Positions 5,792 through 11,563 are shown, counted from the whole stretch's first letter. The stretch: 63,990 nt of DNA, filler included, from an uncultured bacterium (GCA_964609495.1; 12 parts of 12 records of this genome joined end to end with filler, not necessarily neighbours in it); one strand, 5' to 3'. Numbers and translations: made by a program. The notes: generated by a model from the letters alone, not told the origin.

Positions 5792-5863
5792 GGGGGGGTT
5801 ATAACTCGATCTGAAATCATTTTGATCCCCGATTCTATATGCATCCCGGTGAGGCGATTCAAC

Positions 5864-5892
5864 TTTACAGAATCCCCAAATTATGATATAAT
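5864..5892 (+). promoter_or_regulatory. sigma70 promoter (extended -10) of the GH57 gene
   Basis: TTTACA-17bp-TATAAT with a TG extension. Confidence 0.7.
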
Positions 5893-5991
5893 CAAACAAG
5901 AGAAATATTTATAGCTCTCTTCTCGAGAGAAGGAAGATCAGAAATCCGTGAGATTATTGACTATGTTAATAAATATTTAAGGAGGTTTGTT

Positions 5992-7689
5992 ATGCCAGTT
6001 GGTTCTTTTACTTTCGTTCTACATAGTCACCTTCCCTATTGTCGAAAGGCGGGGATATGGCCTTTTGGAGAGGAGTGGTTACACGAAGCCTTGAGTGAGA
6101 CCTATATACCTCTTCTCAATGCGCTTTATGATCTAGTGGGCGAGGGAGTTAAACCTTATTTAACTTTAGGATTGACTCCCGTATTGGTCGAGCAGTTAAG
6201 TGATGCTTATCTATTGGAGAAATTCACCAAGTATGTGGAAACTAAATTGGAGAATTGTGCTGAGGATATCAAAAGATATTCTGGAGAGGATGAGGAGAGA
6301 GCGGCTTTAGCCCATTTCTACCAGGAGTGGTATGCTAAGATATTGCACTCCTTCCAGGATAGATTCGGAGGGGATATAGTAAAAGCCTTTCGCGATCTTC
6401 AGGAGGGAGGATATATCGAGATAATCACCTCCGCCGCTACCCATGGCTATCTTCCCCTTCTGGGGCGTGATTCCTCGATCTACTTTCAGATTAAGACCGC
6501 GGTAGATTCCTACAAGAGACATTTCGGTCGTCAACCTAGGGGTATCTGGCTTCCTGAGTGCGCCTATCGTCCGGGGTATGAATGGGTATCTCCGGTCGAT
6601 GAGGAAGCCAAACCAGTATTTAGACCAGGGATAGATAAGTTCTTGATCGAGAATAAATTGGAGTACTTCATAGTTGATACCCATACCCTGGAAGGAGGGG
6701 CAACTCTAGGGGTTTATGCGGCTCGTTTCCCCGCTCTAAATAGATTATGGAAACAGTTTGATAAAGAATATGTTGAGATTAAAACCAAGGAAACTAAGAC
6801 TACCTACCGTCCCTATCTGCTGAGATACAATCAGGATTTCGTCTCCATCTTTGGGCGTAACGAGAGGAGCGGACTGCAAGTTTGGTCAGCGGAATGGGGA
6901 TATCCGGGAGATGGTTGGTATCGAGAGTTTCATAAGAAGGATCTCAATACTGGTTTACAATATTGGCGAGTCACCTCTAGCGATGCAGATCTTGGCTCTA
7001 AGGAATTGTATAATCCGCAGATAGCTATGGAGAGGGTGGAGGATAACTCCAATCACTTTGTATCGTTGATGAAAGAATTACTGGCTGATTACAGCTCTAA
7101 ATCGGTGGAGCCAGGGATAGTTGTTGCCCCTTATGATGCGGAGTTGTATGGGCATTGGTGGTTTGAGGGGGTGGAGTGGATCAAACGAGTTCTGCGCAAG
7201 ATGGATAAAGATCCCGATATAGAGCTAACGACCGGGGGACGATATCTCGATAAATATCCTGCTACTGTGGTCGTCAGCCTTCCCGAAAGCTCCTGGGGAA
7301 AGGGAGGATATCACTTTATATGGCTTAATCCCGATAACGAATGGATATGGGCCTATGTCTATCGCGCTGAGGAGAGGATGGAGGGATTCGCTACTAAGTA
7401 TAAAGATACCGATGATGGAGATCTCAAGCGAGTCCTCAATCAGGCGGCACGCGAGTTACTGCTTATGGAGAGTAGCGATTGGCCCTTCTTAATATCCACT
7501 GGTCAAGCTAGGGATTATTCAGCTCAACGTTTCACTGAGCATAAGGATAAGTTTGAGCATATAGTGAAGCATATCGAAAGCGGAGATCTCAACGAGAATT
7601 TCTGGAGATGGTTAGGTGAGATCGAGGAGCAGGATAATATCTTCCCAGATATAGATTATAGAAACTACAGGGGAGATGAGGAAAGCTAG
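5992..7689 (+). CDS. GH57 1,4-alpha-glucan branching enzyme (DUF1957)
   Basis: VLHSHLPY, GEEWLHEA, ATHGYLP, GIWLPECAY, PYDAELYGHWWFEG and ESSDWPF motifs. Confidence 0.93.
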   Translation: MPVGSFTFVLHSHLPYCRKAGIWPFGEEWLHEALSETYIPLLNALYDLVGEGVKPYLTLGLTPVLVEQLSDAYLLEKFTKYVETKLENCAEDIKRYSGEDEERAALAHFYQEWYAKILHSFQDRFGGDIVKAFRDLQEGGYIEIITSAATHGYLPLLGRDSSIYFQIKTAVDSYKRHFGRQPRGIWLPECAYRPGYEWVSPVDEEAKPVFRPGIDKFLIENKLEYFIVDTHTLEGGATLGVYAARFPALNRLWKQFDKEYVEIKTKETKTTYRPYLLRYNQDFVSIFGRNERSGLQVWSAEWGYPGDGWYREFHKKDLNTGLQYWRVTSSDADLGSKELYNPQIAMERVEDNSNHFVSLMKELLADYSSKSVEPGIVVAPYDAELYGHWWFEGVEWIKRVLRKMDKDPDIELTTGGRYLDKYPATVVVSLPESSWGKGGYHFIWLNPDNEWIWAYVYRAEERMEGFATKYKDTDDGDLKRVLNQAARELLLMESSDWPFLISTGQARDYSAQRFTEHKDKFEHIVKHIESGDLNENFWRWLGEIEEQDNIFPDIDYRNYRGDEES

Positions 7690-7736
7690 ATCGCATAGCG
7701 TCGAGTGTTTACACCTGACATCAAACTTTGCTGATA

Positions 7737-7783
7737 AAGGAAACTTTTGCAGGCAACAGAACTCAAGGTTCAAAAGTTTCCTT
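7737..7783. mobile_element. 47-bp monomer MITE/palindromic repeat
   Basis: aaggaaactttt-23nt-aaaagtttcctt; reverse-complement match to 45178-45224. Confidence 0.75.
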
Positions 7784-7851
7784 CTTGGTCTTTGAGCAGA
7801 TAATCGGAGTATCATATTCTCAGTTCTTCGTTAGGGAGTTAAAGACTAATT

Positions 7852-7950
7852 CTCCATCACCCTATCCCTCTCCCACGAGGGGAGAGGGAACATTGGGATA
7901 AGCTTGCTCTCTTTAGTTTCCCCTCCCTTGAGGGGGATTTAAGGAGAGTT
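7852..7950. repeat. BoxC-like CCCTCACCCTATCCCTCTCCC...GGGAGAGGG palindromic repeat
   Basis: Same motif at 30186-30224 and 58853-58962; partial copies at contig starts 45155 and 50594. Confidence 0.75.
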
Positions 7951-8024
7951 CGAGATCTAACAGGAGAAAAACCTTCAATAGTCCTATTAATTCGGTAAAG
8001 ACCAATAAAATAAGGCTCTGAAAT

Positions 8025-8945
8025 ATGCGCGTTCTAACTGCTCTAATTTCGGTTTTGATAATATCTTTAAGCATTATTAATTTGGTTTCTGGGGAGGAAC
8101 TCGACAAGGATACTCTCTTCTCTCACTATGATTACGATCGCCATCAACCTTTGGAGGCGACCGAGGCGCTTATCTATGAAACAGCCCTCTTCCAGGAGTA
8201 TAAGATCACCTATCATAGTGTAAATGATGAGATAGTCCCTGCTCTGCTTACCATCCCTAGGAAAGGTCAGAAGCCCTATCCAGTGATCCTGTTCCTTCAT
8301 GGCCATGGGGGAAGCAAGGGCGACATAGCCGATTTTATCGAGCCTATGTCCAACTATGGTTATGCTATAGCGTCTTATGACGCCCAGTATCATGGAGAGA
8401 GAGCTCAGTTCGGTAAGGAGATATACTCAACTGATTTAGAGGCAGATAAAGAAGCGATAATTCAGACTATTATAGATGGACGGCGAGCGATCGATTATCT
8501 GGAGACCAGAGAGGATATAGACTCCGAGCGCATCGCTATGGTAGGCGGAAGTATGGGAGCTATACTAGGTTGCGTTCTGGCAGGGGTGGATGATCGGATC
8601 AAGGTTCCAATTCTCGTTGTCGGCGGAGGGGATATGCCCTTGATGATCGAGACGAGTGAGATGAGCGAGATGAGAGTGATAAGGGAGAGTCTTGACCTAA
8701 GCTATGAGGAACTTAGGGAGATGACCGAAGAGATCGATCCTATCAACTTCGTCAAATATATCTCTCCTCGTCCTCTACAGATGCATAATGGACTCCACGA
8801 TAAGATAGTTCCCACCGAGAGCAATCGCCTTCTTTTCGAGGCAGCTAAAGAGCCTAAGAAGATCTATTGGTATGATGCGGGGCATGATCTGCCTCTGGAG
8901 TATGTCTTTGTTCGAGTGTTGATGTGGTTACAACGATATCTTTAG
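8025..8945 (+). CDS. Secreted alpha/beta hydrolase (esterase/peptidase)
   Basis: Signal peptide, LHGHGG, nucleophile elbow GGSMG, and D..H triad residues (HDKIV, AGHDL). Confidence 0.85.
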   Translation: MRVLTALISVLIISLSIINLVSGEELDKDTLFSHYDYDRHQPLEATEALIYETALFQEYKITYHSVNDEIVPALLTIPRKGQKPYPVILFLHGHGGSKGDIADFIEPMSNYGYAIASYDAQYHGERAQFGKEIYSTDLEADKEAIIQTIIDGRRAIDYLETREDIDSERIAMVGGSMGAILGCVLAGVDDRIKVPILVVGGGDMPLMIETSEMSEMRVIRESLDLSYEELREMTEEIDPINFVKYISPRPLQMHNGLHDKIVPTESNRLLFEAAKEPKKIYWYDAGHDLPLEYVFVRVLMWLQRYL

Positions 8946-8967
8946 TCGAGTTTGAAAATCAGAGGGA

Positions 8968-9268
8968 GTCAACAACCTCTACTGATTGAAAATCAGTAGG
9001 GGCTTGCGAGAGCAAGCCCTGGTTGACTAGGAGGCACTGATATGGTGCAGAAGTTAGCGAAGAGAGATCACATACATACCCTAGAATACTCCTCTCGTTC
9101 TAGGCTCTATGGCTTGTTATTAAACAGTTCTGAGGGTAGGAACAGTGTGACAGGCTTAAAAACCTTCGCTAACAACTCCGAAGAGGCTCTAACCCACCAT
9201 TAGGTGGAGGAACACTTTATATTAGTGTTCAAAACTCAATCAGTCGGGGTCTTCGTGCCTGATTTAAG
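8968..9268 (+). ncRNA. Standalone HEARO/omegaRNA (non-autonomous IscB-type IS200/IS605 element)
   Basis: GTCAAC-hairpin-GGCTTGC/GCAAGCC-GTTGACTAG, then GCAGAAGTT...CCTAGAA-TACTCCTCTCG-TTCTAGG-CTCT...TTAAACAG...CAGTG...AACAACTCCGAAGAGG. The end fragment is followed by ATGA. No IscB ORF. Confidence 0.8.
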
Positions 9269-9319
9269 ATGATAGGGTGATGAGCTAATGATTGGTAGAT
9301 CGGGAAGAGGAGACAAGAA

Positions 9320-11463
9320 ATGAAGCTTGAGATTGGACAACTGATAGATAATAGGTATCAGGTAATAGATACATTAGGGCAAGGGGGAATGGGAGCAGTT
9401 TATAAGGTATATGATATAGCCTCCGATCGAGAGATAGCCCTTAAGATCCTATCCCCGGTGCTTACTCAAGATGAGGAAACTAGAAGATTTCGGAGGGAGT
9501 TCCGAGCGATAGCTAAATTAAAGCATCCCAACGTTATATCTGTATATGATTACGGGATCGATAGCAAGCGGAACATTCACTATTTCACTATGGATTATAT
9601 AAAGGGGAGAGATCTGGGGAAGTTTTGCTCTGAGATTGCCGAGCCACGAGAGGGGAACTTCCTATCGGATGTTCAACTCGAAAGATTGATCAACGTCTTC
9701 ATCCAAACTAGTAAAGCTCTAAGCTATGTCCACTCCCAGGGAGTTATCCATCGCGATATCAAGCCAGGGAATATTATGGTCAACTATGAGAATGTAGTCA
9801 AGCTGATGGACTTCGGAGTGGCTAAGGTAGTCGATGCCTCGCTCCGTTTGACACGAACAGGCACTATTATGGGAACAACCTTCTATATATCTCCTGAGCA
9901 AGCTCAGGGGCATGGGGTCGATTTGCGCTCCGATCTCTATTCGCTTGGTGTAGTTCTCTACGAGGCTTTGACGGGAAAATTGCCCTTCGAAAGTGATGAT
10001 CCTTTCTCGGTGATCTTTATGCACGTGGCGGAGATGCCGCTCGAGCCTCGTAGGCATAACCCTGAGGTCCCCCGAGATTTGGAGAGAGTTGTTCTTCGCC
10101 TGATGGAGAAGGATCCAGCCGATAGATATCAATCTGCTGGCGAGCTAATCACTGCCTTAGAGGAGTGCAGACCTGGGGTTAAGATATCGGCAGAGGCGAT
10201 CTCCGAGACGGGAATAACGACTCCGAAGGTAGCGAGACCAGATCAGATATTCAGAGCGAAGTTGATCGGACGAGATGAGGAATTAGAATCGATCAAGAAG
10301 TGCTTAGAGCGAGTTTTAAAGAGAAATGGAGAGCTAGTTATTATTGGAGGAGAGGTGGGTATCGGTAAGACCAGATTAGTGGAGGAGCTATTCAATTACG
10401 GACGTCCGAAGGGATTAAAATTCATCACTGGAACTTGTCATGAGGAAGAAGGATCTATATCCTATCAACCATTTATCGAGTTGCTTAGGCAGTACTTCCG
10501 CGATGTTAAATTATATCAAGATATCGAAGCAGTCCGAGTAGTAGTAAAGGGATTAGAACCCGAACTTATCAAGTTTGTCCCCGATCTCTCTCAGATGGTT
10601 ACCGAGGTTGTTCCCAGTGTGGAGTTACCTCCAGAGCAGGAAAAGAGCAGATTATTCGATTCGATCTGTCGATTTCTGATAAATGTATCCGAGCGAAATC
10701 CTCTGTTGCTTCTTCTCGATGACTTACAGTGGGCAGATGAGATGACTCTGCAACTTCTCCACTATGTAGCTCGTAATATCAGGAATAGTCGCGTTCTTAT
10801 CTGTGGCACCTATCGAGAGGAGGAGAGCATCGGTAAACATCCCTTAGTTGAGCTAATGCGTCGAATGAGCAGAGAGAGGATATGCCAGAAGATCACCCTC
10901 GAGCGCTTATCCTTGAGTGAAACTCGAGAGATGATTTACTCCCTGTTGGGAACTGGAGATTTGTCATCTGACTTCGAGGTGGTAATTTATGAGGAGACGG
11001 AGGGGAATCCCTTCTTTATCGAGGAAGTGATAAAATCATTGGTTCAGGAAGGGGTATTATATCAACAACACGGCGTATGGAGGAAGCGGTTGGATACAGG
11101 GAGGATCGAGATACCTTCCACTATAACCGATGTAATTGGAAGAAGGTTAGGACTGCTGGATGAGGAGAGCCGAGAGGTTTTAAGTTTAGCCGCATTGATC
11201 GGGAAGAAGTTCGATTTCGATGTGCTGATGGAGTTGAGCGGAAAAGATGAGGATGAGCTGTTGGATCTGATAGATGAGTTATTACGGACTCAATTGATAA
11301 GAGAGGACGAGGTGTCACTTGGTGATAGATACCTCTTCGCCCATATAAAGATGAGAGATGTGCTATATGAGGAGATAAACAAGAGGAGAAGAAGGAGATT
11401 GCATCGGAAGGTGGGAGAAGTTATTGAGCAACTGTGTGGGGATGAAGTAGAGGAGTATATCGG
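9320..11463 (+). CDS. Ser/Thr protein kinase fused to an AAA/STAND ATPase (3' truncated)
   Basis: LGQGGMGAVY, HRDIKPGN, DFG, then LIGRDEE, GEVGIGKTRL, DDLQWAD and GNPFF. Confidence 0.9.
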
Positions 11464-11563
11464 NNNNNNNNNNNNNNNNNNNNNNNNNNNNNNNNNNNNN
11501 NNNNNNNTTAATTAATTAANNNNNNNNNNNNNNNNNNNNNNNNNNNNNNNNNNNNNNNNNNNN

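Follow-up and report, generated by a model that had tools for sequence, protein, structure and literature searches.

Contig C225 (window positions 5792-11463) carries an ORF-less mini-element of the ISC/IscB type, PATE-like in form, that spans 301 bp on the + strand (8968..9268) and whose limits were set by an alignment of its copies. On its 5′ side lies the gene of an alpha/beta-fold hydrolase of 306 amino acids (8025..8945, +), an ORF that matches AXE1, BD-FAE, DLH and other hydrolase families of Pfam and whose stop codon is 22 bases from the element. On its 3′ side, 51 bases beyond the element, starts the ORF of a Ser/Thr protein kinase with an AAA_16 ATPase domain (9320..11463, +; Pfam scores of 175 bits for Pkinase and 105 bits for AAA_16), which is cut by the contig end at 11463. 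All three lie on the + strand, and a pattern scan of 8600-9450 found neither a sigma-70-like promoter nor a terminator. Among the hydrolase's distant relatives (27-42% identical; L100, L102 and about 25 other metagenome loci), a Ser/Thr kinase gene is often found at most 2.5 kb away, mostly upstream rather than downstream as here, and the hydrolase-kinase pairing may be older than the genome in which we found it.

The window, by which we mean the whole stretch of DNA analysed, is 63,990 bases long and consists of 12 small contigs of one metagenome-assembled genome (C224-C232, C234, C235 and C289) with N runs between them, the spacers being pairs of 44-base runs. ORFs that span the N runs are not real, an end of the kinase frame at 11515 being one example. 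The genome, hereafter G000, comprises 3.78 Mb in 349 contigs, is 99.45% complete by markers and is the sole member of its phylum in the genome collection, a lineage with no close relative there. The 40 other genomes searched are kin to G000 at the domain level at best, and none of the 40 yielded a HEARO match. On a different contig of the window, we also observed a cyclic di-GMP-II riboswitch aptamer (RF01786; 32344-32429, +) that scores 60.1 bits against a cut-off of 53.5.

An omegaRNA scaffold in a mini-element with one half hairpin

The HEARO RNA reportedly goes back to Weinberg et al. in 2009. At the C225 locus, its Rfam covariance model (RF02033) matches 8968..9193 (+), a full-length omegaRNA scaffold, with 130.5 bits against a gathering score of 83, over model positions 1-211 of 211 and with an E-value of 8.6e-27 in a search of the whole window. 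HEARO is the only Rfam family that matches there, even when E-values up to 1 are admitted. The first-pass annotation had recognized the layout of a HEARO/omegaRNA from the sequence alone and had proposed an Rfam search as a check; with a significant match that takes in the entire model, this identification is borne out. The C225 copy forms 61 of 61 consensus pairs, and compensatory changes were seen in 27 of the 61 in an alignment of nine of the genome's 12 copies, the fold consensus having been built from those same sequences and therefore leaning towards them. Scaffold identity to the C225 copy is 92% for C82, 88-89% for C5 and C77, 87% for C3 and 78-79% for C31 and C46. At eight positions the C225 copy differs from all four close copies; five of these positions are paired, and pairing is kept in all five. 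The changes at 9077/9109 and 9081/9103 look compensatory and private among the close copies, and the same states are found in the distant copies of C6 and C17; they may have been inherited or converted rather than selected in the C225 lineage. Because the same states recur in distant copies, the argument that such changes prove selection in the C225 lineage is weakened, and we do not count them as proof.

The element had been described as having no nuclease, and this proved correct: between 9193 and the kinase gene an iscB ORF (RRXRR plus HNH) is absent, with four remnant codons only. No ORF of at least 60 amino acids with a protein family lies inside the element, and the only frame inside it, of 53 amino acids at 9042-9203, has no Pfam match. 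A conserved mini-ORF leading from the dead iscB start to the TGA of the ATGA was considered and rejected, the frame being open in the C225 copy and closed by a TGA in the hairpin in C5 (both read by eye).

The sequence blocks singled out by the first-pass annotation are all in place, every one on the + strand. The element opens with GTCAAC (8968-8973), which is closed by GTTGAC (9022-9027). A guide-side subterminal hairpin (8976..9002) follows 8 bases inside that end, with arms at 8976-8987 and 8991-9002 that read CCTCTACTGATT and AATCAGTAGGGG in the C225 copy, and a near-identical counterpart stands at the opposite end of the C5, C46 and C82 elements. The guide adaptor begins with this stem-loop, which is also likely to be the hairpin that TnpA binds at the guide-side end, and a role of the adaptor region in transposition is described in PMC9581776. 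Then come GGCTTGC/GCAAGCC (9001-9007 and 9013-9019), CCTAGAA/TTCTAGG (9080-9086 and 9098-9104), a TTAAACAG block (9120-9127) and a AACAACTCCGAAGAGG block (9171-9186). The last hairpin, CCACC/GGTGG (9194..9211), contains the former iscB ribosome-binding site GGAGGA (9206-9211), and both are conserved in copies still carrying iscB; the Shine-Dalgarno sequence likewise sits in the terminal hairpin of the IsrB omegaRNA (PMC9581776).

The rest of the element is short. An alignment with the iscB gene of C31 identifies 9219..9230 (+) as the remnant of the first four iscB codons, ATA TTA GTG TTC, in which ATG has become ATA. At 9238..9249 (+) lies the distal half of an ATGA-side hairpin, AATCAGTCGGGG, with the proximal half missing: both arms, CCCCGACTGATT and AATCAGTCGGGG, are present in C5, C46 and C82, and the C225 copy has the second only. 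Comparison of the copies gives a spacer of 19 bases from the foot of this hairpin to the element end (9250..9268, +). The hairpins thus stand 19 bases (ATGA side) and 8 bases (guide side) from the ends, a spacing that may resemble the layout of IS608, with its two like hairpins about 19 and about 10 bases from the ends. The 3′ end of the element, GATTTAAG, directly precedes ATGA (9269..9272, +), which copy comparison and the published ISC target mark as the transposon target site and the presumed IscB target-adjacent motif.

Both limits proposed by the first-pass annotation, together with the ATGA, are upheld by the other copies and by the published ISC target, in which insertion falls between N and ATGA (PMC4810608). 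Similarity upstream among the 12 copies begins exactly at GTCAAC, and the 5′ flanks are unrelated. At the other end, C5, C46, C82 and C31 share with the C225 copy an end of the form CCTGATTT(A/G)AG, followed by ATGA and then by unrelated host sequence. The conserved termini and the insertion directly 5′ of ATGA are those of a PATE-like element; of the subterminal hairpins expected at both ends, the ATGA side keeps the distal arm only. Because half of that hairpin is gone, the C225 copy is, judged by its sequence, a remnant of a non-autonomous ISC element and not a competent one.

Sister copies and the loss of iscB

A HEARO search of G000 returned 12 matches over the cut-off (113-157 bits) and two below it. 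A complete iscB follows two of the 12, in C31 (413 amino acids) and C77 (399 amino acids), both with RRXRR and HNH and 77% identical to each other. In C3 the start of an iscB follows and is cut by the contig end, and the C343 copy, with 51 bases only after HEARO, cannot be judged. In eight of the 12 (C17, C5, C225, C82, C1, C6, C46 and C275), the 1.5-1.8 kb that follow contain no iscB. RRXRR, the N-terminal domain of IscB, occurs at six places in G000; further iscB pieces lie at contig ends in C275, C76 and C5, which with C3 makes four cut by contig ends. The suggestion that an IscB and further copies should be sought in the rest of the assembly was thus well placed, as G000 holds 12 HEARO copies and, away from the C225 locus, two complete iscB genes and four cut pieces.

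The 3′ end could be placed in 10 copies, eight of them before ATGA and two before ATAA (C1 and C275; ATAA read by eye). A 3′ hairpin and a spacer of 19 to 20 bases precede ATGA in C5, C46, C82, C77 and C6, and C77 has the same two-end arrangement with its own hairpin at both ends. The weak HEARO matches L013 (C201, 1501-1599) and L014 (C78, 1501-1612), with 31.6 and 29.9 bits, keep the first ~57 bases, that is, the closing stem and the first two guide-adaptor hairpins, and look like ends-only remnants of the same HEARO family. With iscB-linked copies, ORF-less copies and copies of the first ~57 bases all present, G000 holds a series of full elements, guide-RNA-only elements and end fragments.

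Two of the copies have surroundings of their own. The full element of C31 is without the terminal hairpin seen in C5, C46 and C82, and the stop codon of its iscB is the TGA of the target ATGA, which overlaps the ATG of the rlmN-like gene behind (an ATGA stop/start overlap). The standalone copy of C275 is followed by tRNA-Asn(GTT) and then by a TnpB-like gene (HTH_OrfB_IS605 and OrfB_IS605), possibly frameshifted, and a piece of iscB lies upstream of this HEARO copy at the contig end.

Comparison of these copies indicates when iscB was lost. The complete IscB of C31 begins with MLVF (ATG TTA GTG TTC), and the C225 copy has ATA TTA GTG TTC at the aligned place, so that the earlier guess of a decayed MLVF start holds. 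Both the ATA in place of ATG and the break that follows codon 4 are common to C225, C5, C82, C6 and C46, which are five unrelated loci. Because five copies at different loci share both features, the sequences indicate that iscB was lost once in this group, before the element landed at the C225 locus, and that the mini-element spread as such. The first-pass annotation had the iscB ORF deleted from this element: the loss itself stands, four codons being left, and its placement at the C225 locus does not, the deletion being shared by five loci. The ATG is intact in C1 and C275, and C17 is of a different subfamily, from which it follows that ORF-less forms arose more than once. Compared with C5, C46 and C82, the C225 copy has neither the GC-rich hairpins inside the element nor the terminal hairpin's proximal arm, an absence which the alignment marks as a second, smaller deletion private to this copy.

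Mobilization would call on a Y1 transposase (tnpA), for which the 349 contigs yielded a single match over the cut-off, with the caveat that a tnpA may be unassembled. This match (68.2 bits; L001, contig C343, 1221-1463, +) is a frame of 80 amino acids that covers profile positions 37-104 of 121; the HUH-type motif is kept, the start of the domain is lacking, and the 5′ end of another HEARO element has taken the place of the 3′ part. A second Y1 match is below the cut-off and contains stops. Since half of the terminal hairpin is missing and the assembly has no intact tnpA, the C225 copy is probably immobile and fixed in place.

The placement of the sister copies shows a further pattern. In seven of the eight ATGA-ending copies, the ATG is the start codon of a long host frame (L005 in C5, L011 in C46, L007 in C82, L010 in C6, L015 in C31, L016 in C77 and L002 in C17), and the C225 copy is the only one not at a start codon. 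The host frames there are those of rplO/L15, NUDIX, RlmN, dihydroorotate dehydrogenase, an LptC-like protein, a weak Asp23-like match (below the cut-off) and one without a family. Shine-Dalgarno-like motifs were read by eye 7-11 bases from the end of the 5′ flanks of C5, C77, C46 and C82. The start-codon copies split the old ribosome-binding site, now in the 5′ flank that is the guide, from its ATG, and a long co-directional frame lies upstream in 9 of the 12 copies. In part this pattern follows from the ATGA target together with selection against insertions inside genes. A bolder reading, to which we give very little credence, is that ORF-less omegaRNA elements became built-in parts of host transcription units, co-transcribed with host genes. 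If this were true, IscB binding or omegaRNA folding could determine how the gene that follows is translated, the dispersed guides would form a guide library for a few IscB proteins in the manner of a CRISPR array, and the C225 copy, ahead of its kinase gene, would be an example of such a unit.

The predicted guide, its population alleles and the fate of the RNA

With 16 bases taken as the length of an IscB guide, the predicted guide is the host flank directly 5′ of the scaffold (8952..8967, +), conservation starting only at GTCAAC; in OMEGA systems the guide lies just outside the transposon end (PMC10691335). A search of G000 found no second site for this 16-mer at 0 or 1 mismatch. There are nine sites with two mismatches, 0 of 9 directly before ATGA or ATAA, and one site with three mismatches that has ATGA following.

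The guide shares an 11-base repeat, TTGAAAATCAG, with the element's own end hairpin (8952-8962 in the guide, 8986-8996 in the element, both +). The first-pass annotation had remarked on this identity, and it goes beyond chance: the window holds two copies of the 11-mer where 0.08 would be expected, and a count of two or more came up in 0 of 100 shuffles. Similarity of flank and element around the repeat extends to 15 of 16 bases with one gap and no further, a score reached in 5 of 2000 shuffles. That the repeat is left over from an older element end, since decayed, is a possibility that the comparison neither supports nor excludes.

The stretch was found, at least in part, in 24 runs, all of DNA; samples of the salt-marsh or marsh-sediment type contain it. 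Both junctions are spanned by contigs from three other public runs, each belonging to a different study (5′ side: records 1, 10 and 18; 3′ side: records 7, 13 and 21), so that the insertion does not stem from a faulty assembly. In run X4, one contig (record 25) joins 8951 to 8986 and skips the 34 bases between the two TTGAAAATCAG copies, with which some of the guide, the GTCAAC strand of the closing stem and the first arm of the hairpin are lost. This allele is a natural deletion by recombination between the two copies of the repeat, and since parts of guide, stem and hairpin are lost in it, at least some of the population can dispense with the RNA. The joint 8967-9269 that an empty site would have was not seen in the contigs of four runs (X1-X4), and contigs drop rare variants. 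No metagenome contig matched the 33-base 5′ flank in an exact scan, the best of the hydrolase relatives in such contigs is 42% identical and too far for a comparison of junctions, and the 40 other genomes, all related only at domain level, contain no junction match. With no empty site found, the limits of the insertion rest on comparison of the copies and not on a filled/empty pair.

Taken together, these observations make it very probable that the C225 element is a protein-less deletion derivative of an IscB/ISC element (IS200/IS605 superfamily), with an intact omegaRNA that could be loaded in trans, now idle and fixed in place. What it keeps is the omegaRNA scaffold, the iscB ribosome-binding site, four dead-start codons and the last 31 bases (half hairpin and 19-base spacer). 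The RNA would be made by read-through from the hydrolase gene, the likeliest source given that the space between the two genes shows neither a promoter nor a terminator pattern and that the element shares their strand. The 5′ flank, about 16 bases (8952-8967), would serve as the guide, and one of the IscB proteins of G000 would load the RNA in trans, as published for standalone omegaRNAs, which work in trans with compatible effectors (PMC10691335, PMC9581776). Candidates for a compatible effector in G000 are the two complete iscB genes, whose own omegaRNAs are 88% (C77) and 78% (C31) identical to that of C225; because the nearest iscB-linked omegaRNAs are only 87-88% (C3, C77) and 78% (C31) identical, compatibility with an IscB of G000 is assumed. 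The natural target would be the empty site, a guide match followed by ATGA: in the published work, IscB uses an RNA that runs across the transposon end, with the host flank as guide, and cuts the rejoined empty site so that the element is restored (10.1101/2023.03.14.532601). As the guide has no target in the genome, and as an empty site is unlikely to arise with half of the hairpin gone, the C225 RNA is probably loadable and idle, a structurally intact guide RNA gene without a target in G000.

Alternatively, the element might be an inert fossil, which makes no stable RNA, binds no IscB and has merely not yet decayed. We regard this as unlikely, although it is the most serious of the alternatives: the guide matches nothing in G000 but its own site at 0 or 1 mismatch, the transposase hairpin is lost, the natural 34-base deletion allele destroys the guide adaptor, and the element has no promoter pattern of its own. 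Yet at 78-92% identity to the other copies, the scaffold still forms 61 of 61 pairs and scores 130.5 bits, against 135.8 and 124.8 for the iscB-linked copies, and as it lies in sense orientation between two genes that run the same way, without a terminator pattern, some transcription is likely. The opposite possibility, that the element is an active homing guard, is one that we consider improbable. Here, TnpA encoded on unassembled DNA would excise the element, and IscB with the RNA would cut the empty site and thereby cause the element to be copied in again, a role published for IscB and TnpB at their own elements (10.1101/2023.03.14.532601). The omegaRNA fold is intact, iscB genes are present in G000, the mechanism is published for IS200/IS605 elements (10.1101/2023.03.14.532601), and repeats often remain unassembled, so that a tnpA could be missing from the 349 contigs. 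Against this, the ATGA-end hairpin has no proximal arm, unlike those of C5, C46 and C82, and the sole Y1 match over the cut-off is an 80-amino-acid frame without a domain start that a HEARO element has cut; the failure to see the 8967-9269 joint in four runs points the same way, weakly, as contigs drop rare variants.

Finally, the stretch might not derive from a mobile element at all, and be a cis-acting, riboswitch-like leader of the kinase gene or an artefact of assembly. A position on the strand of the kinase gene, 51 bases short of its start, would suit a leader, but the same RNA stands at 11 other, unrelated loci of G000 and HEARO is its only Rfam match; an artefact is contradicted by the independent contigs of three runs that bridge both junctions. 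Either version is thus scarcely credible, and the derivation from an ISC element, with an omegaRNA that is probably loadable and idle, is the reading with which we compare the published systems.

Relation to known IscB-type elements

The full-length match to RF02033 makes the C225 element a HEARO, and the 'and ORF' part of that name is what is absent from it. The kinds of element to which it belongs (standalone omegaRNAs, PATE-like elements and ISC elements inserted between N and ATGA) are already in print, and what is new is the instance only; knowledge of OMEGA systems is unchanged by the C225 locus. Its interest lies in a natural standalone IscB guide RNA whose whole family, with iscB elements, guide-RNA-only elements and ends-only remnants, is seen in one genome, and this family shows a form without nuclease that first spread in that state and afterwards decayed further where it had landed. 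It also makes available two natural IscB proteins of about 400 amino acids and eight spare guide scaffolds for studies of cross-compatibility. The biological role of standalone omegaRNAs is described in PMC10691335 as still open, and the C225 locus alone cannot settle it.

Standalone omegaRNAs of OMEGA (IscB) systems were first reported by Altae-Tran et al. 2021, according to PMC10691335 and PMC9581776. As described in these two sources, they resemble the C225 copy in having no adjacent effector or transposase, with effector loci elsewhere in the genome, in taking the flank as guide, and in occurring as several copies at different sites, evidently mobilized. Function in trans was established there by experiment, whereas here it is inferred; in addition, the C225 copy has lost half of one terminal hairpin, and its host is the sole member of its phylum in the genome collection.

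The PATE-like, protein-less relatives of the IscB/TnpB insertion sequences of Geobacillus stearothermophilus (Meers et al., 10.1101/2023.03.14.532601) are similarly close. They too are short, non-autonomous elements of the IS200/IS605 type with conserved ends and no gene, and they often encode an omegaRNA that needs the nuclease of another element in trans; Meers et al. also place HEARO at the transposon right end. They differ in host and in sequence family, and an active TnpA was tested there, whereas the assembly of G000 holds a fragment only.

For the ends themselves, the closest comparison is with the ISC transposons of Kapitonov et al. 2016 (PMC4810608), several families of which have 5′-GT termini and insert between N and ATGA, as verified there with empty sites. 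ISC1-1_MA and ISC2-1_MS share with the C225 copy a 5′ GTCA, insertion 5′ of ATGA without target duplication and subterminal hairpins, and the ATAA variant of the target, seen here in C1 and C275, is found among them as well (PMC4810608). Those transposons are full elements that encode IscB or IsrB, in contrast to the C225 copy, which has the ends and the RNA without the gene.
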